Shown: one piece after another, positions 1-64,000 of the stretch
Layout of the letters: the number at the start of each line of letters is the position of its first letter
Position numbering within the stretch: the first letter of the stretch is position 1
Source of the DNA: Chromatiales bacterium
GTDB taxonomy: Bacteria; Pseudomonadota; Gammaproteobacteria; Chromatiales; Chromatiaceae
Assembly (NCBI GenBank): GCA_024712425.1
Contig: JAKRWE010000002.1
Coordinates: 1,518-65,517, forward strand
Reading direction: 5' to 3'
Length of the DNA stretch: 64,000 bases
The notes under the pieces: generated by a model
Told to the model about the DNA's origin: nothing
The model's database searches: none
Seen by the model: only the letters and a program-made list of their open reading frames with translations
Made by a program: the position numbers and the translations under genes

Positions 1-237
1 ATACCCGGTGCATCGAAGATCGTGATGGTCTATCTTTGTGAACACCTCGCGGCATTCGAATACGCCTTCCTGGACTGCCAGGTATTCAACCCGCACCTCG
101 CCAGCATGGGTGCGGAAACGATCCTCCGCGAGCGCTTTCTGGATGAACTCGAAGCGGCGGTTTCCCGGGAAGAGGATCCCGCGATCTGGCAATCCCCGGC
201 GATCGACTGCAGCGAACTGGAACACGCGCGAACATGA
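1..237 (+). CDS. aat: leucyl/phenylalanyl-tRNA--protein transferase, C-terminal part (5' end lies outside the window)
   Basis: The frame is open from base 1. The tail ...EYAFLDCQVFNPHLASMGAETILRERFLDEL resembles the conserved Aat C-terminus. Its stop overlaps the next start (ATGA at 234-237). Confidence 0.65.
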   Translation: MPGASKIVMVYLCEHLAAFEYAFLDCQVFNPHLASMGAETILRERFLDELEAAVSREEDPAIWQSPAIDCSELEHART

Positions 238-983
238 GCCCGGACCGACAGCCCCTGCCCCTGTGCATCTCGGCCGCGCACGAGTGCAGTTATCTCCCTG
301 ATCGCGAATCACGCAGCCTGTTCGTGGATCCCGACGCCCCCATGAACATGGCACGCTACAGCCGGCTGATCGAGCGTGGGTTCCGGCGCAGTGGCGGTCT
401 GGTCTACCGGCCACAATGTGATAACTGCAAGCAGTGCCTGTCCGTGCGCATCCCGGTAAACCGTTTCGCCATGCGTCGCCGCTTCCGGCGCCTGTTGCGC
501 CGCAACAGCGATCTCCACATGGAAGCGCGTGACGGTGGCTTTGTACAGGCACACTATGAACTGTACTGCCGATACATGGCCGCCCGGCACGCCGACGGCA
601 GCATGGCCAACCCAACGCCGGAGGATTATGCCGGCTTCCTGATGACCGACTGGTCCGATACCCGTTTCCTCGAGCTGCGCCGCCACGACCGCCTGATGGC
701 GGCGGCTGTCACCGACGTCGTCGAGGACGGACTTTCCGCGGTATACACCTTCTTCGACCCCGATGAAGCCAGGCGCTCCCTCGGCACCCATGCAGTGCTC
801 TCCCAGTTGGAACTGTGCCGGGCACTGCGCCTGCCCTACCTGTATCTCGGCTACTGGGTGCGGGATTGGGACAAGATGCGCTACAAGGCCGATTTCAGAC
901 CCCTGCAGGTCTTCAGCGAGAACCAGTGGCGAGAATTCGGGGTGCACGAAGCGATCCGGGTGCCGGAGCTGCACGGTTCCTGA
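234..983 (+). CDS. bpt: arginyltransferase-like aspartate/glutamate leucyltransferase (Bpt)
   Basis: 249-aa ORF with an N-terminal Cys cluster (ECSYLPDR...[11 protein letters not shown]) and the length and layout of bacterial Bpt/ATE proteins. It is translationally coupled to aat. Confidence 0.8.
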
Positions 984-1077
984 GCCGACACCACGGCAAT
1001 CCCCTGAATCGGGTTCGATTTGCTATACTCCGCGCCCATCGCGGCAACGCCGCCGCAACCGGACTCAGGATCTATCG

Positions 1078-1296
1078 ATGGCGAAAGAAGATGTAATCGA
1101 AATGGAAGGGACAGTGATCGAGACACTGCCCAACACCATGTTCCGCGTGGAGTTGGAAAACGGCCACGTGGTGACCGCACATATCTCGGGCAAGATGCGC
1201 AAGCACTATATCCGCATACTCACCGGCGACAAGGTCAAGGTGGAGCTCACACCCTATGACCTGAGCAAGGGACGCATCACCTACCGCGAGCGCTGA
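1078..1296 (+). CDS. infA: translation initiation factor IF-1
   Basis: 72 aa, [30 protein letters not shown]...KGRITYRER, essentially the canonical IF-1 sequence. The ATG at 1078 lies inside the longer track ORF 763-1296. Confidence 0.95.
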
Positions 1297-1303
1297 TACG
1301 CCT

Positions 1304-3562
1304 TCAGTGCACTGAACGGGGACGAATATCGAACGCCAGTTCATCCCCCTCGATACCGATACGCACCTCCCCCCCCTGAGCCAGGCCTCCGAACAACAGG
1401 TGCTCCGCCAGCTCCTTCTTGATCTTCTCCTGAATCAGGCGCGCCATGGGGCGCGCGCCCATGTGCGGGTCGTAGCCGTGTTGCGCCAGCCAGGCACGTG
1501 CATCCGGTTCCACTGACAGGGTCACCTGCTTTTCCTGCAGCTGCTGTTCGAGCTCGAACAGGAACTTGTCCACCACGTGCGTGATGGTCTGCTCGTCCAG
1601 CGGAGCAAACTGGATCACTGCATCCAGGCGGTTGCGGAACTCGAGGGTAAACAGCTTGTTGATGGCCTCCATGCCGTCGCTGCTGTGGTCCTGGGTCGCG
1701 AATCCGATCGAGCGGCGCGCCATCTCGCTGGCGCCGGCATTGGTGGTCATGATGATGATTACGTTGCGGAAATCAGCCTTGCGCCCGTTGTTGTCGGTCA
1801 GGGTGCCATGGTCCATCACCTGCAGCAACAGGTTGAACACGTCCGGATGGGCCTTCTCGATCTCGTCGAGCAGCAGCACCGCGTGCGGATGCTTGTTGAC
1901 CCCCTCGGTCAGTAGACCGCCCTGGTCGAAGCCCACGTAACCGGGTGGCGCACCGATCAGGCGCGACACCGTGTGCCGCTCCATGTACTCGGACATATCG
2001 AAACGGATCAACTGCATGCCGAGCACGCGGGCGAGCTGGCGGGTGACCTCGGTCTTGCCCACCCCGGTAGGGCCGGCGAACAGGAACGAGCCGACCGGTT
2101 TCTGGTCAGTGCCCAGCCCGGAGCGGTTCATGCGGATCGCCGCCGACAGGGCCTCTATGGCCGAATCCTGACCGAAGACCACCATCTGCAGGTCGCGCGT
2201 CAGGTTCTTCAGGGATTCGGTATCGCTGGCCGAGACCTTGCGCGGCGGAATCCGCGCGATCTTGGCCACGATGCTCTCGATCTCGTTTATCCCGATGGTC
2301 TTCTTGCGGCGCGAGGGCGCCAGCAACTGGTTGGCTGCACCCGCCTCGTCGATCACATCGATGGCCTTGTCCGGCATGTGGCGGTCGTTGATGAACTTAT
2401 CCGCTAACTCGGCGGCAGAGCGCAGCGCCCGCGCCGAGTACTTGACCTGGTGGTGCTCCTCGAAGCGGGATTTCAGTCCCTTGAGGATACGGATGGTGTC
2501 CTCGACCGAGGGCTCCTCGATATCCACCTTCTGGAAACGCCGCGCCAGGGCGCGATCCTTTTCGAAGATGCCCCGGTATTCCTGGTAGGTGGTCGAACCG
2601 ATGCAACGCAGATCACCCGAGGCCAGCATGGGCTTGATCAGGTTGGATGCATCCATGACCCCGCCGGAAGCGGCGCCGGCGCCGATGATGGTGTGGATCT
2701 CGTCGATGAACAGCACGGCCTCGGGCTGAGCCTTCAGCTCGACCAGCATCGCCTTGAGGCGTTTCTCGAAATCACCCCGGTACTTGGTTCCGGCCACCAG
2801 GCCGCCGAGATCGAGGGCGTACAGGGTGCAGGGAGAAAGCACCTCCGGCACCTCGCCGTCCACGATGCGCTTGGCCAGGCCTTCCGCAATGGCCGTCTTG
2901 CCCACCCCGGCCTCGCCTACCAGCAGGGGATTGTTCTTGCGTCGCCGGCACAGAATCTGGATGGTTCGCTCGACTTCGGGTTGGCGCCCGATCAGCGGGT
3001 CGATCTTGCCCTGGCGGGCCAGCTCGTTGAGGTTGGAGGCATAGGTATCGAGGGCGCTCTGCCGGGCCTCCCCCTCCCCCGTTTGCGCAGGCACATCGCT
3101 CTCATCGTGCTCGTGCTGAGACTCGCTCGGCACCTTGGAGATGCCATGCGAGATGTAGTTCACCACGTCCAGGCGATGGATGTCCTGCTTCTCAAGGAAA
3201 TAGACCGCCTGCGAATCCTGCTCGCTGAAGATCGCCACCAGCACATTGGCGCCGGTGACCTCGTTCTTCTCGGATGACTGGACATGGAAGACCGCGCGCT
3301 GCAGCACTCGCTGGAAACCGAGTGTGGGCTGGGTCTCACGGTCCTCGTCCAGCGGCATGCGCGGCGTGGTCTCTTCGAGGAATTCGATCAGTTCCGAGCG
3401 CAGCGTGGTCATATCGGCCGCACAGGCACGCAGCACTTCCGCGGCCGCCGGGTTGTCCAGCAAGGCCAGCAGGAGGTGCTCGATGGTCATGAATTCATGC
3501 TGGTACTCCCGCGCCTCACGGAAAGCCTGGTTCAGCGTGAATTCAAGTTCTTTGCTCAACAT
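1304..3562 (-). CDS. clpA: ATP-dependent Clp protease ATP-binding subunit ClpA
   Basis: 752 aa with a Clp N-domain and two AAA+ modules (Walker A GEAGVGKT and GPTGVGKT). clpS sits directly upstream. Confidence 0.95.
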   Translation of the reverse strand: MLSKELEFTLNQAFREAREYQHEFMTIEHLLLALLDNPAAAEVLRACAADMTTLRSELIEFLEETTPRMPLDEDRETQPTLGFQRVLQRAVFHVQSSEKNEVTGANVLVAIFSEQDSQAVYFLEKQDIHRLDVVNYISHGISKVPSESQHEHDESDVPAQTGEGEARQSALDTYASNLNELARQGKIDPLIGRQPEVERTIQILCRRRKNNPLLVGEAGVGKTAIAEGLAKRIVDGEVPEVLSPCTLYALDLGGLVAGTKYRGDFEKRLKAMLVELKAQPEAVLFIDEIHTIIGAGAASGGVMDASNLIKPMLASGDLRCIGSTTYQEYRGIFEKDRALARRFQKVDIEEPSVEDTIRILKGLKSRFEEHHQVKYSARALRSAAELADKFINDRHMPDKAIDVIDEAGAANQLLAPSRRKKTIGINEIESIVAKIARIPPRKVSASDTESLKNLTRDLQMVVFGQDSAIEALSAAIRMNRSGLGTDQKPVGSFLFAGPTGVGKTEVTRQLARVLGMQLIRFDMSEYMERHTVSRLIGAPPGYVGFDQGGLLTEGVNKHPHAVLLLDEIEKAHPDVFNLLLQVMDHGTLTDNNGRKADFRNVIIIMTTNAGASEMARRSIGFATQDHSSDGMEAINKLFTLEFRNRLDAVIQFAPLDEQTITHVVDKFLFELEQQLQEKQVTLSVEPDARAWLAQHGYDPHMGARPMARLIQEKIKKELAEHLLFGGLAQGGEVRIGIEGDELAFDIRPRSVH

Positions 3563-3621
3563 GCCTCTACCTGTTTCTCAGTGCTTCCGGAATAAGACCG
3601 CCCGGGCCCCGGAAAAATCCC

Positions 3622-3939
3622 TCACGCCTCCTCCATGTCACACAGCAGCGGGTGCTGGTTGGCGCGCGAAAACTCGTTCACCTGGGTGACCTTGGTCTCG
3701 GCGACATCCTTGGTGAATATGCCGCACACACCCACACCGCGTGTATGCACGTGGAGCATGATGCGGGTCGCCTTTTCCTTGTCCATATAGAAAAAGTGCT
3801 CGAGCACATGCACCACGAACTCCATGGGAGTGTAGTCGTCATTCAGCAGAATAACTTTATACAGCGGCGGCTTTTTGAGCTTCGGCTTTGCTGGCTCGAC
3901 CGCGAGGCCGCCTTCGTCATGTCGATGATCATTGCTCAT
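3622..3939 (-). CDS. clpS: Clp protease adaptor ClpS
   Basis: 105 aa with the hallmark [23 protein letters not shown]. It has the conserved position upstream of clpA. Confidence 0.9.
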
Positions 3940-4238
3940 GGTCTGGCAAAAATCCGGATATTCTTAATGTATTTATTCTGACCTATGCCAGATGGGTTGA
4001 AAACGGGCGATTTCAAGGGCAATCCTTTATGGCGAACTGCGTACGGACATTTACACAGGCCGCTCTTACAGCATATTAGTAAATATAAAACAATTGAAAA
4101 TACAAGCACTTGTTTGACCCCGGCAAAACAAAAGCTATACTTGACCACCGATGTCGACATTAAGGGTGCCGGTAACAACAATACCAGCCGGTCCCTCGCG
4201 GGCATCGGAGATGTAAATACCCCATGGGAGGACTGAAG

Positions 4239-4454
4239 ATGGTCACTGGTGTAGTAAAGTGGTTCAACAATGCAAAGGGTTACGGGTTTGTAACCCCGGA
4301 TGAAGGTGATCAGGACATCTTTGTGCATTTCAGCGCAATCGAAATGGATGGATACCGCACCCTCAAGGAGGGACAGCGGGTCGAGTTCGAGGTGGAACAG
4401 GGTCCCAAGGGCCTGCATGCACTCAAACTGCATTCCGCCCAGGCGATGGCCTGA
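4239..4454 (+). CDS. cspD: cold-shock domain protein (CspD-like)
   Basis: Carries the [12 protein letters not shown] and [12 protein letters not shown] motifs. A GGGAGGA Shine-Dalgarno precedes ATG 4239 (the track ORF starts at 4224). The synteny next to clpS matches E. coli cspD. Confidence 0.85.
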
Positions 4455-4478
4455 TTTTCGGGCCTTTCCGAAACGCAG

Positions 4479-4508
4479 CAAAAAGCCCGCCGACCGGCGG
4501 GCTTTTTG
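4479..4508. terminator. bidirectional rho-independent terminator between cspD and icd
   Basis: AAAAAGCCCGCCGACCGGCGGGCTTTTT: a GC stem flanked by an A-run and a T-run, lying between convergent genes. Confidence 0.8.
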
Positions 4509-4532
4509 CTGTTTCGCAGCGGGCGCCGCGCC

Positions 4533-5789
<1,257 letters not shown>

Positions 5790-5856
5790 CTTGCTTAATC
5801 CGCTTGCAGTTGCTTGAAAACGCCACATTTTAGCATCAACCAACACGACATCGCGC

Positions 5857-6450
5857 ATGCCCAGGCTTGTACTTTTCAATAAACCCTTCAACGTGCTGAG
5901 CCAGTTCACCGATGCCGAAGGACGCGAGACCCTGGCCGATTACATCGAACTGCCCGGCGTGTACCCGGCCGGCCGCCTGGACCGGGACAGCGAGGGACTC
6001 CTGCTGCTGACCGACGACGGCGCCCTGGCCCACCAGTTGACCGAGCCGCGCAAGCCCACCTGGAAGACCTACTGGGCGCAGGTGGAGGGCGAGATCGACA
6101 AAACAGCCCTGAAGGCACTGCGCAAGGGCGTTACGCTCAAGGACGGCCCCACCCGCCCGGCACGCGCCAGAAAAATCGACGAGCCGGCCATCTGGCCACG
6201 TACGCCGCCGGTCCGATACCGGGCCAGCATCCCCACCTCCTGGCTGGAACTGCAGATCCGTGAGGGACGCAACCGCCAGGTGCGGCGCATGACCGCAGCG
6301 GTTGGCTTTCCCACCCTGCGCCTGGTACGCGCAGCGGTCGGCGAATGGACGCTGAACGGCCTGCAACCCGGTGCCTACCGCCAGATCGAGGTGGCCCCGA
6401 CTCCACGCCGCGTGACACAAGGTCGCCGCAGACCGTCCCGAAGGCGATAG
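5857..6450 (+). CDS. rluE: 23S rRNA pseudouridine synthase RluE
   Basis: [16 protein letters not shown]...[18 protein letters not shown]...[20 protein letters not shown] matches the RluE family. The icd-rluE-nudix-mnmA-hflD-purB order matches E. coli. Confidence 0.85.
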
Positions 6451-6459
6451 AATTGGCGC

Positions 6460-7992
6460 ATGAGATGGCACCCCCGAGTTACCGTGGCCGCGGTTATCCG
6501 CAACGCCGATGGCCGGCACCTGCTGGTAAAAGAGAAACCGCGTGGCGAGATCGTGTTCAACCAGCCCGCCGGCCACCTGGAAGCAGGTGAATCCCTGATC
6601 GAGGCCATCATCCGCGAGGTGCGAGAGGAGACCTGCCGCGCATTCACGCCCGAGGCCCTGCTCGGCGTCTATCGCTGGCAGATCCCGCCGCACGGAGACA
6701 CCTACCTGCGTTTCTGTTTCATTGGCCGGGTCGGCGAGGAGCAGCCCGGACTGACGCGCGACCCGGACATCCTGGATACCTGCTGGCTGGCACCCGGGCA
6801 ACTGGACAGCCCCGGACTGGACAGCCGCAGTCCCATGGTCAGACGGTGCATGGAGGACGCCATGGCCGGGAAGGCCTACCCCCTGGATCTGCTGCACGAA
6901 ATGCCCCCCCCGATGGCGGATAGGCCGCTGGACGTCATCGTCGGACTCTCGGGCGGCGTGGACTCCTCGGTGGCCGCCCTGCGCCTGGTCGAGGCCGGAC
7001 ACCGGGTACGCGGGCTGTTCATGAAGAACTGGGGGGAGGACGACAGCGGGGACCACTGCTCTGCCGCCGAGGACCTGGCCGATGCCCGACAGGTCGCCGA
7101 TCGGCTGGGCATCGAGTTGCTGACCGTCAATTTTTCGGCCGAGTACTGGGACCGGGTGTTTGCCTACTTTCTCGATGAATACCGTGCCGGGCGCACACCC
7201 AATCCGGACGTGCTGTGCAACCGCGAGATCAAGTTCAAGGCGTTCCTCGATTACGCGCTGGAACTGGGTGCCGACCGCATCGCCACCGGGCACTATGCCG
7301 GCGTGCGCCGCAGCGGCGACTCGGTGCAGCTGATCAGGGCTCATGACGAGAACAAGGACCAGACCTATTTCCTCTACATGCTGGGTCAGGCCGCCCTGCG
7401 GCATGCCCTGTTTCCGCTGCATGCCCTGGACAAATCCGAGGTGCGCCGAATCGCGGAACAGGCCGGCTTCGCCAATTTCCGCAAGAAGGACAGCACCGGC
7501 ATCTGTTTCATCGGCGAGCGCCGCTTCCGGGACTTCCTCGCCCGCTATCTGCCGGCCAACCCCGGCCGCATTGAAACCCTCGAGGGCGAGACGCTGGGCG
7601 AGCACCAGGGGCTGATGTACTACACCATCGGTCAGCGCCAGGGGCTGGGCATCGGCGGCACCCGCACACACGACGACAGACCCTGGTTCGTGGTCCAAAA
7701 AGACCTGCAGCGCAACGTGCTGCTGGTGGCACAGGGACACGACCACCCTGCCCTGATGCGCCAGGAACTGGATGCGGAACAACTGCACTGGGTCGCCGGT
7801 ACGCCGCCTGCTGCATCCTTTCGCTGCCAGGCGCGTTGCCGCCACCGTCAGCCGTTGCAGGACTGTGAGGTGCGCATTGCCGGCGATACGGCCCATGTGC
7901 GCTTCGACCAGGCCCAGCGCGCGCTCACCCCGGGGCAGTCGGTGGTGTTCTACCAGGACGAGGTGTGCCTGGGCGGCGGGATCATCCAGTGA
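6460..7992 (+). CDS. mnmA: NUDIX hydrolase (NudJ-like) fused in frame to tRNA 2-thiouridine(34) synthase MnmA
   Basis: The N-terminal ~145 aa carry a Nudix box ([22 protein letters not shown]). From about nt 6901 ([25 protein letters not shown]-loop) to the end is full-length MnmA. No stop codon separates the two parts. Confidence 0.85.
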
Positions 7993-8612
7993 GTGGCCGG
8001 CACGACGATCGCGATCGCACGATCGCCCTGGCCGGCGTGTTCCAGGCAGCGCAGTTGGTCACCGCGCTGGCCCGCAATGGCCAGTGCGAGCAGGCAGCGC
8101 TGCAATCCAGTATCGAATCCCTGTTCCAGTTCACGCCCGACTCGGTCGAGGCCGTGTATGGCGGCATCGCCGGCCTGGAGACCGGACTGAGCACGCTGAT
8201 AATGCAGCTCGACCAACCGGCCCGACGCGACCTCGAGGTCGCCCGCTATGCCATCTCGCTGATCACCCATGGCGACAAACTGCTCAAGGACCGTCCCCGC
8301 TTCGAGGCGCTGGGCAAGGACCTGGAAATACTCGAGCAAAAGACCCGTCATTTCGACTTGGCCGATTACTCGCGCACGGCCCACCTCGCGCGCCTCTACC
8401 AACAGTACATCAGCCCGGTACAGCCGCAGATCCTGGTGCGCGGGGAACCGCTGTATCTGCAAAACCCGCAGATCGCGGAGCAGATCCGCAGTATCCTGCT
8501 GGCAGGCATCCGTGCTGCGGTACTGTGGCGGCAATGCGGGGGACGCCGCTGGCAGCTGATCATGCGCCGGCGCAAAACCACGGAAATTGCCCAGGATCTG
8601 CTTGAACCCTGA
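7965..8612 (+). CDS. hflD: high-frequency-of-lysogenization protein HflD
   Basis: [23 protein letters not shown]... is the typical HflD N-terminus. The true start is probably GTG 7989, which overlaps the mnmA stop (GTGA). Confidence 0.8.
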
Positions 8613-8665
8613 GCGCTGAATGCTGTCACTATCCCATCCATCACTCACTCAAACGGGAAACAACA

Positions 8666-9076
8666 ATGAAGCAATCCATCCTGCTGCTGGCAACCATCAC
8701 CGGCGTCCTCACCCTGGCTGCCTGCAGCGACAACAGTTCCAATGGACAGGCAGACGCGCCGCCCGCGAGCACGCAGTCCAATGCACCTGTCAGCGAAAAG
8801 GCAGAGAAACTGGCCGATGATGCCAAGGATCTTGGCAGCAGCGTATGGCAGGCCACCAAGGAGAAAACCGGTGAGCTGGTCGACACGGGCAAGCAGGCCC
8901 TCGACAATGCCTCCAACGCAACGGCCGAGGCCGTCGAATCGGTGAAGGAGAAGACTGCCGAGGTCTACCAGAGCGCCAAGGAAAAGACCTCCGAGGTGAT
9001 CGACAGCGCCAAGGAGCGCATGGGCTCCGACAGCCAGCAACAGCCGGCACCGGTTGTGGACCCACGAAAAATCTGA
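8666..9076 (+). CDS. putative lipoprotein with KEKT-type repeats (LEA/YtxH-like composition)
   Basis: Signal peptide with lipobox LTLAAC|S. Low-complexity repeats follow: ATKEKTGELV / SVKEKTAEVY / SAKEKTSEVI. Confidence 0.55.
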   Translation: MKQSILLLATITGVLTLAACSDNSSNGQADAPPASTQSNAPVSEKAEKLADDAKDLGSSVWQATKEKTGELVDTGKQALDNASNATAEAVESVKEKTAEVYQSAKEKTSEVIDSAKERMGSDSQQQPAPVVDPRKI

Positions 9077-9125
9077 CCCACCCGAAAACATTCGCTGCCA
9101 AGGCTGCTCCTACACACCGCCCCCC

Positions 9126-9149
9126 GTAGGAGCGGGCTTGCCCGCGAAG
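9126..9149. repeat. REP-like palindromic unit (GTAGGAGCGGGCTTGCCCGCGAAG)
   Basis: GC hairpin CGCGGGCAAGCCCGC. The same core recurs at 60553-60574, and in degenerate form at 63816-63830. Confidence 0.6.
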
Positions 9150-9198
9150 AAACATCGTGCTGATCCGAAACCGTGCCATCGCCAAACACAAGCCCTGA

Positions 9199-10614
<1,416 letters not shown>

Positions 10615-10641
10615 ACCTCGCCCAGGCGTTACCACGGACAG

Positions 10642-10668
10642 AAAAAACCGGCGCCTGGCCGGTTTTTT
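10642..10668. terminator. bidirectional rho-independent terminator between purB and ihfB
   Basis: AAAAAACCGGCGCCTGGCCGGTTTTTT lies between convergent genes. Confidence 0.8.
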
Positions 10669-10692
10669 CAGCATTCAACGAAAGTGCCGTAC

Positions 10693-11001
10693 TCAGGCGT
10701 TTTCTTCCAGCTCCCGCAGGTAACCGTTGTTCACCCGCTCGCGCAACTCCTTGCCCGGCTTGAAGTGCGGCACGTACTTGCCTGAAAGCTGCACCGAGTC
10801 ACCGGTCTTGGGGTTACGCCCCACACGCGGCGGACGGTAGTGCAGCGAGAAACTGCCAAAGCCGCGAATCTCGATACGGTCACCCGTGGCGAGCGCACGG
10901 CTCATCTGCTCGATCATGCATTTGACCGCCAATTCCACATCGCGGTACGCCAAGTGGCTCTGCTCCCTGGCAATGACTTCGATCAGTTCCGATTTGGTCA
11001 T
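10693..11001 (-). CDS. ihfB: integration host factor subunit beta
   Basis: 102 aa, MTKSELIE...[29 protein letters not shown]..., matching the IHF-beta/HU fold sequence. It lies downstream of rpsA. Confidence 0.93.
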
Positions 11002-11067
11002 TACATGCTTCCGTTGGTTTGCGGGACGACGCGCTCACGCCGCCCCGCTGTTTCGGTGGTCTGCCGC

Positions 11068-12747
<1,680 letters not shown>

Positions 12748-26359: not shown

Positions 26360-27382
26360 TCAGTGAATCAGTCCCACCCGCTCCGGCGCCAGCTGTTCGA
26401 GGGCCCGGTAGTGGATATAGTCCATGTAGTTGGGCACCGTATCTCCTTCGGCGAAACCGCGCTCCAGGGCCCAGCGGGCCTCGGCCTCGAGCGTGGTGAT
26501 CAGCCACTGGTCGAGATTGACCGCGAAGCGTAAATCGCTCCATATTCCCCCGATCAGGTCCGGATCCTTTTCGAATCGTTGCGCCACCAGCCCACGCGAC
26601 TCATCCGGATGCCGGTTGATATAGTGGACGGCCTTTATCAGGATCTGCAACAGGCGCCGAACCTCGGAGGGATGAGCCGCCACAAACGTTTTCCGCGCCA
26701 GCAGATTGAAGGCCTCCAGATAGAAATGCTGGTGGGGCACGAGCAAGGCGTCCCCGCCCAGATCCCGCTGGGCCAGTTGCACATAGGGTTCCCAACTGGC
26801 AACCGCATCCACCTCGCCGTTTTCCAGCAATGCAGGCGTCTTTTCCGGCTGGATACCCGTAATCTCGACCGAAGAGGCAACTATCCCGTGCATCAGCAGG
26901 GTGTGGTCGAGAAAAAATGTGCCGACGCACCGAGGATGGTTCCCACCCTGCGCCCCTGCAGATCCGCCAGGGAGCGAATACCGCTTTGACGGCGCGTGAG
27001 AATCTTGACGTCGTTGTCAGAACTGACAAAGGTGGCGAGGACGACAAAATCAGAGTGCCTGAAACTGTTGACCATAACCACGGTTTCAGAGGACGTGGCA
27101 AAGTCCACATCGCCGCGGAACATCGCCTGCGCCGTGCGGTGCCCACCAATGTAGTCCTTTATTTCAACGTCCAGGCCCTGCGCCCGAAAATAATGCTTGG
27201 CCTCTGCGATCACAAACGGCGCTGACAGCGGGGTGACTGAAACGCCAATCCGCAATGGAACGGCTGTTTCCGCAACCACTGACCGACATAGTAAAGAGGA
27301 ACAAAAGAAGCAGCAGGACAACGCTTGAACGCCCGCACTGGCGGTCCGGATGAGATGCTCCCGGGAAGCTGCGCATGGGCAT
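26360..27382 (-). pseudogene. periplasmic NMT1/SsuA-like substrate-binding protein, frameshifted
   Basis: ORF 26893-27321 ends ...GASAHFFSTTPC*. Adding one T to the T6 run (plus strand A6 at 26912-26917) restores HFFLDHTLLMHGIVASS..., which is ORF 26360-26893. The best signal peptide (MPMRSF...LFLFTMSVSGC, from 27382) is in yet another frame. The stop lies 1 nt from the sensor gene start. Confidence 0.75.
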
Positions 27383-27515: not shown

Positions 27516-28292
27516 TCAGTAACGCACGGCCGGCGTTTCGATCCTGAGCCCATTGGATCGCGACATGATATAGGCTCCCAGCAGCCGACTCTCTTCCGAG
27601 TCTGGCATGAAAGGTTCGGCACGCATCAGCGTCAGGCACTGTTTGATGCACAGATCGAGGTTGGCCATCTCACCGGTATCCAACCGATAGGCCGGGAAGC
27701 CGTTTCCCATTCCCTGACTGATACGCTGCCCCCGAATGTATTGTCCGGTATACATCTCATGGCAGTGCGCGCAGGACATATCGATCAGACCGAAGCGGGT
27801 GCGGTAGATCGCCTCGCCTTTTTTCAGCAATGACGCCATCGACCCATCGGTTTGTACATTGACCGCCTCGCCAGCAGCCAGGTGGCGCACAAAGGTCTCC
27901 AGGGCCAGGAGGTCGGGATCATGGTATGGCAGCGCCTTGGTCCGGGCACGCTGCTCCTGGCAGTTGCGAATGCGGTCCTGCAGGCGGACGATGCCGCCCA
28001 TGCTCTTGTCGTAGACCGGGTAGCGGGCGAGCCTTTTCGCGTCCAGCTTTGCGCCCTCCTGGCCGTGACAGCTGGCACAGGATCTGCCGGAATCCGGCCG
28101 CCTGCGGAACAATTCCTGCCCCTTGTCGACCGCCAGATAACCCGGATTCTCGAATTCGTCGTCCTGCATCTGGCGGGTCTCTTCCCGGAGGTAGGCATAG
28201 CCGGACTTCGCCTGCCGGTCAGCCCATGCGTTATTGGCAAGCAGCGCAACGATCAGCCCCAGCGCCCAGGGCAATATCCTGGGCCCGGTCAT
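27516..28292 (-). CDS. soxA: sulfur-oxidation dihaem cytochrome c SoxA
   Basis: 258 aa starting MTGPRILPW (signal peptide), with two CxxCH motifs (CASCH, CAHCH) and SoxA-like sequence throughout. ATG 28292 overlaps the soxX stop (ATGA). The extension of the track ORF to 28622 is rejected. Confidence 0.85.
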   Translation of the reverse strand: MTGPRILPWALGLIVALLANNAWADRQAKSGYAYLREETRQMQDDEFENPGYLAVDKGQELFRRRPDSGRSCASCHGQEGAKLDAKRLARYPVYDKSMGGIVRLQDRIRNCQEQRARTKALPYHDPDLLALETFVRHLAAGEAVNVQTDGSMASLLKKGEAIYRTRFGLIDMSCAHCHEMYTGQYIRGQRISQGMGNGFPAYRLDTGEMANLDLCIKQCLTLMRAEPFMPDSEESRLLGAYIMSRSNGLRIETPAVRY

Positions 28293-28756
28293 TTCAGCGT
28301 CGCCAGGTAGGCGATGACATCTTCGACAGCCTGCGCCGGAAGAAACGCCCTGCCCCGGTATTTCACAGCAGGGCGATTGATCAACGCGAGATCGGGATAG
28401 TAGCCAGGCATGATGGAATAAGGGTTCAGATGGCGTGCATCCACCACCCGCAGGCGCAGCTGCGCCCGGGTGAGACGACTGGCGACCCCGGCCAGCGGCG
28501 GCCCGATGGTGCCATAGCCTTCCACCCCGTCCACCGGCAGTCGATGGCAGGCAAGACAATTGCCCTGCCCGCTGTCCAGCACGATACGCCGACCGCGCCC
28601 CGCATCGCCCTGCAAACCACAAAGTGGCTCAGGGACCCCATAGTCAACCATCTTCCACTTGCAATAAGCCTCTGCCGGCGTGACTGCGGCACTATCTGAC
28701 GCCATGCCGGTCATGGGTGTAAGCAGGAACACGAGGAGAATACCGGCGCCTTTCAT
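28289..28756 (-). CDS. soxX: sulfur-oxidation monohaem cytochrome c SoxX
   Basis: 155 aa with a signal peptide, a single CLACH haem site and the GTIGPPL...M motif region typical of SoxX. It is coupled to soxA. Confidence 0.8.
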   Translation of the reverse strand: MKGAGILLVFLLTPMTGMASDSAAVTPAEAYCKWKMVDYGVPEPLCGLQGDAGRGRRIVLDSGQGNCLACHRLPVDGVEGYGTIGPPLAGVASRLTRAQLRLRVVDARHLNPYSIMPGYYPDLALINRPAVKYRGRAFLPAQAVEDVIAYLATLK

Positions 28757-28835
28757 TGGATCGTTGAATCATGTTGTTGAGCGGACAAAGATTCCCACAG
28801 CTCCGATGCGTTTGTCCAATCCCTGTCACGCACGG

Positions 28836-29326
28836 TGTTAGTCCAAAGCAGTAATATCCCCTTTGTCCAATTCTAAAATGTCCCCTTTTGATTTCGGGAG
28901 GGGTGGTGACAGAGGAGACCATTGCGATGACACAGAAGACGGTGGACCGGCTGGGGGTGGTTCAGCAGGTTGTCGACCGGCAGTTGCGGCAGAAAGAGGC
29001 GGCACGGCAGTTGGACTTGAGCGTGCGGCAGATCAAGCGCCTGGTGGTCCGATACCGGGCCGAGGGAGCGGCTGGACTGGTTTCCCGCCACCGGGGCAGG
29101 CGCCCCAACAACCAGATCGCCGATGCGCTCCGGCAGGAGATCCTCGACAAAGCATCCACGCCACCGTCGAGAAGGCCAAGACCATCCAACTCAACCGCAG
29201 GACCCACAGGCCTGCACCGGACCATCCCTGGAGATGAGGCGCCCCCTCGTCCCCTCATGACCCCGGACTCACCAAGGGGACATTTCAGCTTGGGAGAAAA
29301 GGGGACATTTTAGAATTGGGTTGACA
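28836..29326 (+). mobile_element. 491-bp non-autonomous IS derivative (HTH-only), copy 1
   Basis: Ends are TGTTAGTCC... and ...GGGTTGACA. A perfect 23-bp subterminal inverted repeat CCAATTCTAAAATGTCCCCTTTT lies at 28867-28889 and 29297-29319. The internal ORF MTQKTVDRLGVVQQVV...RYRAEGAAGLVSRHRGRRPNN is the HTH N-terminus of an ISNCY/IS481-type rve transposase, with no catalytic domain. Confidence 0.8.
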
Positions 29327-29554
29327 GAGCCAAAAAACATTTTGATCATAGATAGTGAAAAGGAGGACCTGCAGGCGTATGCGAACGCCTTGCACAAAGA
29401 GGGTTATGAAGTCGCCACAATAGGCAGCGGCAAGCAGGCATTGGAACTCGCAGGATTGGGCGGGTTGCCGGACTTGGCAGTGATCCAGGTGTGTCTGCCC
29501 GACATTTCAGGCCTGAAGGTGGCGCAGGAACTGCAGTCGTTGGGGGGTCTCTAA
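29321..29554 (+). pseudogene. truncated response-regulator receiver fragment (spacer copy 1)
   Basis: KNILIIDSEKEDL...GYEVATIGSGKQALE...PDLAVIQVCLPDISGLKVAQEL follows the CheY-like pattern. It stops after 77 aa at a G6 run (29542-29547). Its first codons lie inside the IS end, and the expected phospho-acceptor Asp position reads Q. Confidence 0.6.
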
Positions 29555-29714
29555 CCCGGATATTTCATCCGCTTCTCGCTTTTCCGGGCGGTCAGTGGAT
29601 GGAAGATGTGGTGCCTCGAACGGGACGTGGAAAGGCTCGTGAAGGGCTATTTTCTAGGCTGCAGGCACACCTTCCCCTTACCCCCCATTGTTTGTCAACG
29701 TGCCGGGGCGGCAC

Positions 29715-30205
29715 TGTTAGTCCAAAGCAGTAATATCCCCTTTGTCCAATTCTAAAATGTCCCCTTTTGATTTCGGGAGGGGTGGTGACAGAGGAGACCA
29801 TTGCGATGACACAGAAGACGGTGGACCGGCTGGGGGTGGTTCAGCAGGTTGTCGACCGGCAGTTGCGGCAGAAAGAGGCGGCACGGCAGTTGGACTTGAG
29901 CGTGCGGCAGATCAAGCGCCTGGTGGTCCGATACCGGGCCGAGGGAGCGGCTGGACTGGTTTCCCGCCACCGGGGCAGGCGCCCCAACAACCAGATCGCC
30001 GATGCGCTCCGGCAGGAGATCCTCGACAAAGCATCCACGCCACCGTCGAGAAGGCCAAGACCATCCAACTCAACCGCAGGACCCACAGGCCTGCACCGGA
30101 CCATCCCTGGAGATGAGGCGCCCCCTCGTCCCCTCATGACCCCGGACTCACCAAGGGGACATTTCAGCTTGGGAGAAAAGGGGACATTTTAGAATTGGGT
30201 TGACA
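29715..30205 (+). mobile_element. 491-bp non-autonomous IS derivative, copy 2
   Basis: Offset by exactly 879 bp from copy 1, with identical ORF translations. Confidence 0.8.
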
Positions 30206-30433
30206 GAGCCAAAAAACATTTTGATCATAGATAGTGAAAAGGAGGACCTGCAGGCGTATGCGAACGCCTTGCACAAAGAGGGTTATGAAGTCGCCACAAT
30301 AGGCAGCGGCAAGCAGGCATTGGAACTCGCAGGATTGGGCGGGTTGCCGGACTTGGCAGTGATCCAGGTGTGTCTGCCCGACATTTCAGGCCTGAAGGTG
30401 GCGCAGGAACTGCAGTCGTTGGGGGGTCTCTAA
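30200..30433 (+). pseudogene. truncated response-regulator receiver fragment (spacer copy 2)
   Basis: Identical to 29321-29554. Confidence 0.6.
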
Positions 30434-30593
30434 CCCGGATATTTCATCCGCTTCTCGCTTTTCCGGGCGGTCAGTGGATGGAAGATGTGGTGCCTCGAAC
30501 GGGACGTGGAAAGGCTCGTGAAGGGCTATTTTCTAGGCTGCAGGCACACCTTCCCCTTACCCCCCATTGTTTGTCAACGTGCCGGGGCGGCAC

Positions 30594-31084
30594 TGTTAGT
30601 CCAAAGCAGTAATATCCCCTTTGTCCAATTCTAAAATGTCCCCTTTTGATTTCGGGAGGGGTGGTGACAGAGGAGACCATTGCGATGACACAGAAGACGG
30701 TGGACCGGCTGGGGGTGGTTCAGCAGGTTGTCGACCGGCAGTTGCGGCAGAAAGAGGCGGCACGGCAGTTGGACTTGAGCGTGCGGCAGATCAAGCGCCT
30801 GGTGGTCCGATACCGGGCCGAGGGAGCGGCTGGACTGGTTTCCCGCCACCGGGGCAGGCGCCCCAACAACCAGATCGCCGATGCGCTCCGGCAGGAGATC
30901 CTCGACAAAGCATCCACGCCACCGTCGAGAAGGCCAAGACCATCCAACTCAACCGCAGGACCCACAGGCCTGCACCGGACCATCCCTGGAGATGAGGCGC
31001 CCCCTCGTCCCCTCATGACCCCGGACTCACCAAGGGGACATTTCAGCTTGGGAGAAAAGGGGACATTTTAGAATTGGGTTGACA
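30594..31084 (+). mobile_element. 491-bp non-autonomous IS derivative, copy 3
   Basis: Offset by exactly 1758 bp from copy 1, with identical ORF translations. Confidence 0.8.
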
Positions 31085-31085
31085 T

Positions 31086-31292
31086 GATTTTCCACCGCTG
31101 AAACGCCACCGGATCGAGGCCCGATTTTCAGGCGGGGATATCACCAGCGATGGTGGCCTGTTGTTGCTCCGGCAAGTCGATCGACGGCTGGGGTTGCTCG
31201 AGGCGGTCAATGCGAGGCTCCCCGACCCCCGCGATGCCCGCTATGTCGTGCATGACCAACTGACGTTGTTGCGTCAACGCGTCCATGCCCCC
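31086..31292 (+). pseudogene. N-terminal fragment of an IS1380/IS4-type DDE transposase gene
   Basis: The translation ...RFSGGDITSDGGLLLLRQVDRRLGLLEAVNARLPDPRDARYVVHDQLTLLRQRV matches the conserved N-terminal block of that transposase class (F.GG.LTS.AGLLLL...RLGL...D.R....H....LLRQRV). It is cut on both sides by the 491-bp element. Confidence 0.55.
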
Positions 31293-31783
31293 TGTCAACC
31301 CAATTCTAAAATGTCCCCTTTTCTCCCAAGCTGAAATGTCCCCTTGGTGAGTCCGGGGTCATGAGGGGACGAGGGGGCGCCTCATCTCCAGGGATGGTCC
31401 GGTGCAGGCCTGTGGGTCCTGCGGTTGAGTTGGATGGTCTTGGCCTTCTCGACGGTGGCGTGGATGCTTGGTCGAGGATCTCCTGCCGGAGCGCATCGGC
31501 GATCTGGTTGTTGGGGCGCCTGCCCCGGTGGCGGGAAACCAGTCCAGCCGCTCCCTCGGCCCGGTATCGGACCACCAGGCGCTTGATCTGCCGCACGCTC
31601 AAGTCCAACTGCCGTGCCGCCTCTTTCTGCCGCAACTGCCGGTCGACAACCTGCTGAACCACCCCCAGCCGGTCCACCGTCTTCTGTGTCATCGCAATGG
31701 TCTCCTCTGTCACCACCCCTCCCGAAATCAAAAGGGGACATTTTAGAATTGGACAAAGGGGATATTACTGCTTTGGACTAACA
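31293..31783 (-). mobile_element. 491-bp non-autonomous IS derivative, copy 4 (inverted)
   Basis: Reverse complement of copies 1-3 over the full 491 bp. I found one substitution, at 31470, which corresponds to 29149. Confidence 0.8.
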
Positions 31784-31984
31784 ACAAATACCGTGACCTT
31801 TGTCATCTTACTCCAAAACAACTATGACGAACGGTTCACAAAGCGTCCTTTCGATGAATCAAGTTCCTGAATTTACATAAAAAAGAACTAAATGCAGCAG
31901 ACGCTCACAAGTGACTGATTTAACGCAGGCCAAGCGCCCTTATTCGGGTCAAACAGGCTCGAAACAGCGCGCAAATCTGCAATC

Positions 31985-32692
31985 TCAGGATTCCTGTTCC
32001 CGTTGGCGCAGATAAAACAGGGCAATCTCAAGGTCTCCCGGACGGGTGACCTTGAGATTGTCTGCCGCCCCCTCCACCATCAGCGGACGCCCCCCCACCC
32101 ACTCGATGGCGCTGGCCTCGTCGGTTACCGTCGCACCCGCTTCCAGGGCCCTGCTCAATGCATCCATGAGCTGTCCCAGGCGAAACATTTGCGGGGTAAA
32201 GGCCCGCCACAATCCCTCGCGCTCGACCGTTTCCCGTACCCGCTGGTCCCGGCCAGCCCGCTTGACCGTGTCATGCACCGGGATACCCAGCAAACCACCG
32301 GTATCAGCGGCGGATACCGCTGCCATCAGGCGATCGATATCAGCGCGCCGCACACAGGGCCGGGCCGCATCGTGCACCAGCACCCAGTCGTCCCCCGCCG
32401 CCTCGCGGGACAGGACACGCAGCGCATTCAGCACCGAGTCGGCGCGCTCCCGACCACCGGGCGCACGCACAAGCTGCGGGTGATTGGCGTAATCGGTCCC
32501 TTCCCACCAGGCATCATCCGGCGCCAGGGCCACGCACACACCTGAGATGGCCGGGTGCCCGAGGAACGCTTCGATGGCGTAATCCATCACCCTGCGCCCG
32601 GCCAGTGGCAGGTATTGCTTGGGGACATCGCCCCCCATACGGCGCCCGACCCCCGCCGCGGGAATCACGGCCCAGCATCCTGCCTCACTCAT
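31985..32692 (-). CDS. ispD: 2-C-methyl-D-erythritol 4-phosphate cytidylyltransferase
   Basis: AVIPAAGVGRRMGGDVPKQYL N-terminal motif. The ftsB-ispD synteny is conserved. Confidence 0.9.
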   Translation of the reverse strand: MSEAGCWAVIPAAGVGRRMGGDVPKQYLPLAGRRVMDYAIEAFLGHPAISGVCVALAPDDAWWEGTDYANHPQLVRAPGGRERADSVLNALRVLSREAAGDDWVLVHDAARPCVRRADIDRLMAAVSAADTGGLLGIPVHDTVKRAGRDQRVRETVEREGLWRAFTPQMFRLGQLMDALSRALEAGATVTDEASAIEWVGGRPLMVEGAADNLKVTRPGDLEIALFYLRQREQES

Positions 32693-63917: not shown

Positions 63918-64000
63918 TGTCAACCCAATTCTAAAATGTCCCCTTTTCTCCCAAGCTGAAATGTCCCCTTGGTGAGTCCGGGGTCATGAGGGGACGAGGG
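63918..64000 (-). mobile_element. 491-bp non-autonomous IS derivative, copy 5 (truncated by the window edge)
   Basis: TGTCAACCCAATTCTAAAATGTCCCCTTTTCTCCCAAGCTGAAATGTCCCCTTGGTGAG... is identical to the start of copy 4. Confidence 0.8.

Follow-up and report, generated by a model that had tools for sequence, protein, structure and literature searches.

A putative 491-bp deletion derivative of an ISTde1-subgroup insertion sequence, partly in tandem, between soxX and ispD in a Chromatiales bacterium

We analysed a 64,000-nucleotide stretch of the genome of a Chromatiales bacterium (assembly GCA_024712425.1, contig JAKRWE010000002.1, positions 1,518 to 65,517 of the forward strand; hereafter the window), in which the gap between the genes soxX and ispD is filled mainly by copies of a 491-bp element derived from an insertion sequence (IS). 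The gap measures 3,228 bp (28757-31984) and is bounded by soxX on the left (28289..28756, minus strand; TIGR04485, 73.7 bits, cutoff 61) and by ispD on the right (31985..32692, minus strand; TIGR00453, 240.6 bits, cutoff 181); soxA was also confirmed among the flanking genes. A repeat search and direct sequence comparison placed the 491-bp unit four times between soxX and ispD, as copies 1 (28836..29326), 2 (29715..30205) and 3 (30594..31084) on the plus strand and copy 4 (31293..31783) on the minus strand, in agreement with the coordinates of an earlier note on this DNA. The three plus-strand copies are 100% identical to one another. As the note had also reported, copy 4 departs from them at one position, and this is a single base: A is replaced by C at element position 314 (window 29149 versus 31470), which changes ILDKAS to ILDQAS in the open reading frame (ORF) of the element (variant K in copies 1-3, variant Q in copy 4). 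Together the four elements account for 1,964 bp, or 61% of the gap, considerably less than the "almost whole" gap that had been claimed for them.

The DNA between the copies is composite. Starting from the IS tip of copy 1, the first spacer consists of the N-terminal fragment of a response-regulator receiver gene (29327..29550, plus strand, 224 bp; receiver-domain matches), and then of a piece of an IS1380-family IS, the outermost 164 bp at its 3' end (29551..29714, minus strand), where the left inverted repeat (IRL) of copy 2 cuts into it. The latter piece shows 97.6-98.8% identity to two of the public loci used for comparison (designated here by L numbers), namely L071 2407-2570, where the IS1380 transposase scores 406 bits on NF033539, and L067 3704-3866. 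A second 388-bp spacer (30206..30593, plus strand) separates copies 2 and 3 and is 100% identical to 29327-29714, an identity that the earlier note had overlooked. An exact-extension script found 28836-30205 equal to 29715-31084 over 1,370 of 1,370 bp. The three plus-strand copies and the two spacers are a perfect tandem duplication of an 879-bp unit, in which copy 2 opens the second unit and copy 3 marks the end of the array. Tandem Repeats Finder reported nothing here, its period limit of 500 lying below 879. Between the right inverted repeat (IRR) tips of copies 3 and 4 lies an internal 5' fragment of an IS1380 transposase gene (31085..31292, plus strand; profile positions 2-55 of NF033539, E 9e-12), which identifies the second-IS fragment mentioned in the note. 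Over 31085-31290, its first 206 bp, the fragment agrees with L071 3868-3663 at 100%, and this 208-bp piece is oriented opposite to the IS1380 3' piece in the spacer. The IRL of copy 1 abuts the soxX-side flank and that of copy 4 the ispD-side flank. No Rfam model matched the gap at E<=0.1, and the DNA fold z-score of -3.9 reflects the inverted ends only. The gap is IS debris, and the four "HTH proteins" that could be annotated from their helix-turn-helix (HTH) region are transposase stumps, with no hidden gene or regulatory array.

The parent of the element was found through contig look-ups in a long-read contig of the ENA assembly ERZ26859061 (ctg17833_1507x, locus L068); a word-indexed protein search with the HTH query returned short fragments and pseudogenes only and missed it. 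The parent IS is 1,422 bp long and encodes a 420-aa protein scoring 477.5 bits (cutoff 250) on NF033594, an ISNCY/IS1202-type transposase profile. Element positions 1-313 and 314-491 match L068 2737-3049 and 3981-4158 at 100% (491/491 for copy 1), and the 491-bp unit thereby corresponds to positions 1-313 and 1245-1422 of the parent. A block of 931 bp (L068 3050-3980) is deleted, and with it codons 82 to ~391 and the whole DDE domain, while both compound ends remain complete and the 420-aa transposase keeps its first 81 codons (HTH). In copy 1 the deletion junction falls at 29148..29149, so that the only inter-copy difference (29149 / 31470) sits directly at it. Since 931 bp is not a multiple of 3, the retained ORF (28906..29313, plus strand; 135 aa from a GTG start, 128 aa from the ATG at 28927) is made up of 81 native HTH codons and 54 out-of-frame codons that run into the IRR. 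The native ribosome-binding site, the start and the complete HTH_28/29 region are preserved; the truncated ORF matches Pfam HTH_28/HTH_29, and on NF033594 the first 68 positions (2-68) align with residues 24-90 of the 141-aa ORF of the element, with E 4e-19.

The ends of the element read TGTTAGTCC...GGGTTGACA, with TGT...ACA tips and two ~25-bp sub-repeats per end. On the left (28836..28887, plus strand), the TGT tip is followed by two ~25-bp direct sub-repeats (...ATATCCCCTT / ...AAATGTCCCCTT), presumed to be transposase-binding sites; on the right (29274..29326, plus strand), two ~25-bp sub-repeats precede the tip ...GGGTTGACA. Microhomology or an inverted repeat at the endpoints of the 931-bp deletion was sought and found unconvincing, the candidate being a 5-nt TCCTC/GAGGA complementarity without a direct repeat. 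By sequence, we read the 491-bp unit as a non-autonomous internal-deletion derivative of the 1,422-bp IS, which upholds the note's view of it as IS-derived and non-autonomous. The 100% identity to the parent over the retained parts suggests that the derivative is very young and does not represent an old, independent family of MITEs (miniature inverted-repeat transposable elements). The window lacks an intact transposase for the element, as had been noted: the internal 931 bp of the parent find no match in it, and tblastn finds residues 1-81 and 389-420 only. The parent is not missing altogether; full-length copies occur in the near-identical ENA contig at both outer junctions of the gap and at the right edge of the window.

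The 420-aa transposase carries HTH_28/29/32 domains and a weak rve_3 match, and its translation contains ...QIDGS...FIDDATS...YPDKHS...GRVERANQTLQ. This gives DD between D1 and D2 and Q at E+7, as read from the translation, and both features are signatures of the IS1202 family (preprint 10.1101/2022.12.17.520857), in which each end also contains a second, internal transposase-binding site (PMC10132070). Target-site duplications (TSDs) of 15-17 bp were found at 10 copies across the clade, including a full-length copy (L071) and a 491-bp copy (L072) with 16 bp each, and by the published subgroup description this length points to the ISTde1 subgroup. We provisionally assign the parent to the ISTde1 subgroup of the IS1202 family (formerly the ISNCY/IS1202 group; Siguier et al., preprint 10.1101/2022.12.17.520857; Harmer & Hall 2023, PMC10132070), with which it shares its size of 1.42 kb, the TGT...ACA tips, the inner second binding region, an HTH + DDE transposase (DD, E+7 Q) and the 15-17-bp direct repeats, a likeness judged from published descriptions. 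It differs from the subgroup as described in that the window holds only the 491-bp derivative without the catalytic domain, and in that this clade has a TTG(AC) motif 16-18 nt outside the IRL.

Relatives of this IS are widespread. The 21-mer common to both ends occurs at at least 63 loci in many Gammaproteobacteria, full-length end pairs in related loci lie ~1.40-1.46 kb apart with 65-92% DNA identity to this IS, and the cluster of full-length transposases has 110 member sequences. Some of these loci have structures of their own. A full-length copy on a 2x-coverage contig (L001 1186-1225) is without one left-end sub-repeat, 24 bp having been lost between the direct sub-repeats, and also shows several frameshifts, which may be consensus errors. 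On the chromosome of Hahella sp. SMD15-11 (L063 ~399-3272), two full-length related ISs stand head-to-tail with exactly one 17-bp TSD (CCCCTTTTTTTCATTGG) between them and are flanked by the same 17-mer; the pair may represent a tandem resembling a circle junction, or a second insertion into the same target.

Copies of the derivative beyond the gap, expected if the earlier note was right, were found. On ctg18036_1414x, another high-coverage contig of the same sample (L072), a 491-bp copy lies at 3931-4421 between two housekeeping genes and is flanked by a perfect 16-bp TSD, TGGGCTTGTTCGACCA. Exact look-ups placed variants of the element ORF on 9, 5, 4, 5, 4, 3, 2 and so on public contigs; exact look-ups for the DNA of the 128-aa and Q-variant ORFs found none on record, and a junction-specific scan of JGI metagenomes gave zero matches. 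Because both ends are kept and the L072 copy is flanked by a TSD, the 491-bp derivative could be mobilised in trans by the transposase of full-length copies elsewhere in the genome. In several respects it resembles bacterial MITEs and other non-autonomous IS derivatives (e.g. MITEAba12, PMC6382973): it is short, retains both parental terminal inverted repeats, has no functional transposase, exists in multiple dispersed copies and shows the parent's TSD at L072, if at none of the four window copies. It differs from them in its length, 491 bp being at the large end of their size range, and in still carrying an ORF (HTH plus frameshifted tail). Two further short relatives were observed. A second, independent deletion derivative (L074 4058-4985 and L073 4043-4985) joins parent positions 1-814 and 1299-1422 into ~928 bp with a 263-aa ORF, and is found at the same IRR|response-regulator junction as window copies 1 and 2. 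An uncultured Methylococcaceae metagenome-assembled genome (MAG) harbours a 458-bp element with the end motifs of the clade (L028 7470-7927), suggesting that short derivatives may arise repeatedly in this IS clade.

The base that sets copy 4 apart from copies 1-3 immediately follows the deletion junction. The A form equals the parent minus L068 3050-3980, and the C form equals the parent minus 3051-3981. An ILEKAS form also exists in a public ORF cluster (proteins P0039-P0050, protein sequence only) and, if its codon is GAG, would equal the parent minus 3049-3979, so that the same 931-bp deletion would exist in three positions, shifted by -1, 0 and +1 nt. In each form the variant junction base equals the parental base on one side (in the E form if the codon is GAG). 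Chance point mutation is a very unlikely source of such variants; a likelier one may be heteroduplexes of the derivative with full-length copies, repaired at the base of the 931-nt loop.

The duplications that an insertion would leave are absent from the gap: no copy of the four is flanked by matching TSD 16-mers, nor is the array as a whole. When the array was considered as a composite transposon, the outer 16-mer on the left of copy 1 (TCCCTGTCACGCACGG) matched neither the one on the right of copy 3 (TGATTTTCCACCGCTG) nor that of copy 4 (AGGTCACGGTATTTGT). A partial match of 11/16 between the soxX-side 16-mer and the right flank of the second IS in L068 was treated as unproven. An inversion between copies 3 and 4 was tried as a means of restoring the TSDs, and the flanks remained mismatched. 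With mismatched flanks and no TSD at any of the four copies, every copy would be a recombinant.

Flanks of the IRL, 58 distinct ones taken from many genomes (the loci L001-L072, and 28820-28835, 29675-29714 and 31784-31825 of the window), were compared by reading outward from the IS. TTG starts 16-18 nt outside the IRL in 28 of the 58, often as TTGAC(A) or TTGNC, against a mean of 3.7 and a maximum of 10 for other three-position windows; the right flanks of the IS copies show no mirror TTG signal. The target geometry is motif, one TSD length and IRL, in fixed orientation. All three distinct IRL junctions of the gap (soxX side with copy 1, ispD side, and within IS1380) have the clade's TTG at +17, the one of copy 2 as TTGACAA 17 nt outside its IRL, within the IS1380 part of the spacer. 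They would accordingly be genuine old insertion junctions whose right-hand partners have been exchanged.

The explanation that fits these observations best, and which we consider probable, is that the 491-bp unit derives from an ISTde1-subgroup IS and that the gap was shaped mainly by homologous recombination between IS copies and not by fresh insertions. We infer three steps. The IS would have inserted repeatedly into a response-regulator/IS1380 locus and beside soxX and ispD; homologous exchanges between the IS copies would have followed; and one unequal exchange, turning element-spacer-element into element-spacer-element-spacer-element, would have duplicated the element-plus-spacer unit. 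What unequal crossing-over predicts is present, namely identical units, bounds formed by direct repeats, and identical repeat-spacer junctions. The very recent burst at this locus that the earlier note proposed is not supported in this light, as the four copies are without TSDs and copies 1-3 amount to one tandem duplication. The arrangement matches the pattern of tandem amplification between direct IS copies by unequal homologous exchange, with its repeat-spacer-repeat-spacer-repeat order and identical units and junctions (IS26 arrays are a look-alike). Unlike in classical IS-flanked amplification, the spacer is functionless debris without evident selection for dosage, there are two units only, and the mechanism is read from the outcome.

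Comparison with independent assemblies gives the main counterweight. The ENA contig L068 is collinear with the window, with an offset of 19,559 at clpA and soxX, 19,796 at ispD and 19,795 at dctP, and in its flanks the identity to the window is 100% along stretches of 11.5 kb, 3 kb and 11.3 kb, with a single-base difference in a further 6.9 kb. Several points weigh against the recombination account. Within these flanks, the L068 gap (2536-6000) is 3,465 bp long and contains two full-length 1,422-bp ISs arranged tail-to-tail and an unrelated 341-bp filler, and as L068 is the only independent assembly of the locus, the window arrangement is not independently reproduced. The source contig of the window seems bounded by IS repeats, suggesting that the assembly may not bridge 1.4-kb repeats, which makes the order of the nodes suspect and, above all, the number of element-spacer loops. 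Moreover, unequal crossing-over is deduced from structure alone, and mobilisation in trans is drawn from one TSD-flanked copy and from ORF counts on multiple contigs.

The full-length ISs of L068 are located at exactly the same two outer junctions as the window array, the one at L068 2737-4158 sharing its flank junction with copy 4. A 61x variant contig (L067) shows a third arrangement of the gap. In the ENA assembly the response-regulator fragment is on a different, 800-kb contig (L074 4986-5209) with the same IRR|response-regulator junction, placed after the ~928-bp IS derivative and before an intact IS1380. At the soxX junction (window 28856-28857; L068 ~5901; the end of L069), three datasets differ in IRL bases 21-22, which are AT in the window, GT in the ENA data and GC in a Logan contig of SRR17988786; such differences at one fixed site suggest that the resident copy has been converted or replaced among near-identical strains. 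A second ENA contig of very high coverage, ctg17359_1690x (L077), duplicates window 1-11270 at 99.88% identity, with 11 gaps and several of its genes split, and represents either a co-existing decayed strain or a poorer consensus. We view the soxX-ispD locus as an IS nest prone to recombination and varying among near-identical strains; the array represents either a structural variant at the strain level or, in part, an artefact of assembly.

The strongest rival is that the individual junctions are real and their order and multiplicity are not: the assembler would have taken a short, deleted path through the IS and looped element and spacer twice, the true locus resembling the ENA contig. That contig does combine identical flanks with a different interior of similar length (3,465 versus 3,228 bp). 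The interior segments of the window array (388, 388 and 208 bp) are moreover all short nodes with an IS on both sides, the ENA assembly has the response-regulator fragment on another contig, no mismatch separates the two 879-bp units, and the source contig apparently ends inside IS1380 at one end and inside this IS at the other. However, assemblers normally break at repeats and do not invent paths, and a contig crossing the gap implies read or read-pair support for the join of soxX, element and response regulator and for the other joins. Full-length ISs should have broken the assembly at this place, as they apparently did at other full-length copies. The junction at the left of copy 2, between the 164-bp IS1380 piece and the IRL, is absent from the ENA loci examined, which indicates that the source population differs, and an IRL variant at the soxX junction that is different in three datasets speaks for real turnover at the site. 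We regard an artefact of this kind as a substantial minority possibility and retain recombination between IS copies as the preferred reading.

Three biological alternatives fare much worse. The 879-bp element-plus-spacer could have been amplified by transposase, either as a translocatable unit or composite element that re-inserts beside an existing copy, as with IS26, or by way of tandem-dimer intermediates. The Hahella pair, with full-length copies head-to-tail at exactly one TSD length (17 bp), and reported circular forms of the family whose ends lie a direct-repeat length apart (preprint 10.1101/2022.12.17.520857), lend this some plausibility. It is nonetheless improbable: the spacer consists of 388 bp of unrelated DNA and is no junction of TSD length, the array has no flanking TSD, a targeted-conservative mechanism is not known for IS1202-family transposases, and unequal exchange of the RecA type needs fewer assumptions. 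Alternatively, the HTH-only ORF may be under selection, as a trans-dominant inhibitor of transposition or a domesticated regulator for which the copies are kept. Its intact expression signals and HTH_28/29 region would suit such a role, as would its occurrence on many contigs with a few amino-acid variants. But the 54 C-terminal aa are junk read in the wrong frame, the small number and recent origin of the variants preclude a demonstration of purifying selection, other deletion derivatives have different breakpoints (L074), and retention of the 5' end follows from where the deletion fell; selection on the ORF thus seems very doubtful. Four or five independent and very recent transpositions of a non-autonomous element into the gap can be set aside as the least credible of all, for although the copies are virtually identical, the element has moved elsewhere (L072) and all IRL junctions have the clade's target motif, no copy has the obligatory 15-17-bp TSD, independent insertion cannot yield an exact 879-bp tandem repeat of copies 1-3 with identical spacers and junctions, and the outer two junctions are common to full-length copies in another strain, so that those insertions pre-date the presence of the derivative there.

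A broader proposal goes beyond the gap itself, and we put it forward tentatively. Insertion in this clade may be non-random, with the IRL set in fixed orientation at a distance of 16±1 bp, one TSD length, from a motif of the TTG(AC) type; exchange between derivative and full-length copies may be so frequent that the deletion junction exists in three forms (-1, 0 and +1 nt); and the nest may be a rapidly turning-over recombination hot spot in a strain-heterogeneous population. No target has been identified for the IS1202 subgroups with long direct repeats (10.1101/2022.12.17.520857; PMC10132070). The geometry of TTG motif, TSD length and IRL has a parallel in the ISAba32 subgroup, which inserts at XerC/D sites. 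A junction promoter, formed by a TTGACA tip and TAATAT at IRL positions 17-22, was considered and rejected; it needs directly abutting ends, and the circles of this family have a spacer of direct-repeat length.

At its right edge the window contains the right-end 83 bp of a further IS copy (63918..64000, minus strand), a 100% match to element positions 409-491. The earlier note counted this as a fifth copy starting at 63918. The match itself stands, whereas its assignment does not: these 83 bp are common to the 491-bp derivative and the full-length IS, and the edge copy cannot be called a 491-bp copy from the window. In the near-identical ENA record the copy is full-length (1,422 bp; L071 8389-9810) with a 16-bp TSD, GTGTTTGCCGGTTCGT. 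The surrounding ENA loci are dense with IS1380, IS21, ISL3, IS66 and IS5-like elements and also encode a group II intron reverse transcriptase. Next to soxA (window 26360-27321, minus strand), two ORFs matching profile positions 1-117 and 129-235 are the parts of one broken gene for an SsuA-family ABC substrate-binding protein, a frameshifted pseudogene in both assemblies. This agrees with the note's remark on frameshifted genes and local genome decay, the surroundings being IS-ridden with at least one split gene. For the window enolase, the best named relative is that of the scaly-snail endosymbiont (88% identity), the other named relatives being gammaproteobacterial and Chromatiales MAGs. 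With its several IS families nested in one another, its broken genes and its structural variants between strains, the region resembles the nested IS "graveyards" of IS-expanded, host-restricted or recently bottlenecked bacteria; unlike in those, host restriction is here only suggested, by the enolase relative at 88%.

For the annotation of this genome, the four predicted "HTH proteins" of the gap are to be read as transposase stumps. The locus is also a good site for testing repeat resolution, since two public assemblies of near-identical strains disagree here. The general picture of IS behaviour is unchanged by these observations, which describe ordinary mobile-element biology in an IS-laden genome. 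The gains for the family are modest: a non-autonomous derivative, documented with a 16-bp TSD, from the little-studied ISTde1 subgroup; a candidate for the target motif, none being known for the subgroup; and what may be the footprint of recombination between derivative and parent copies.

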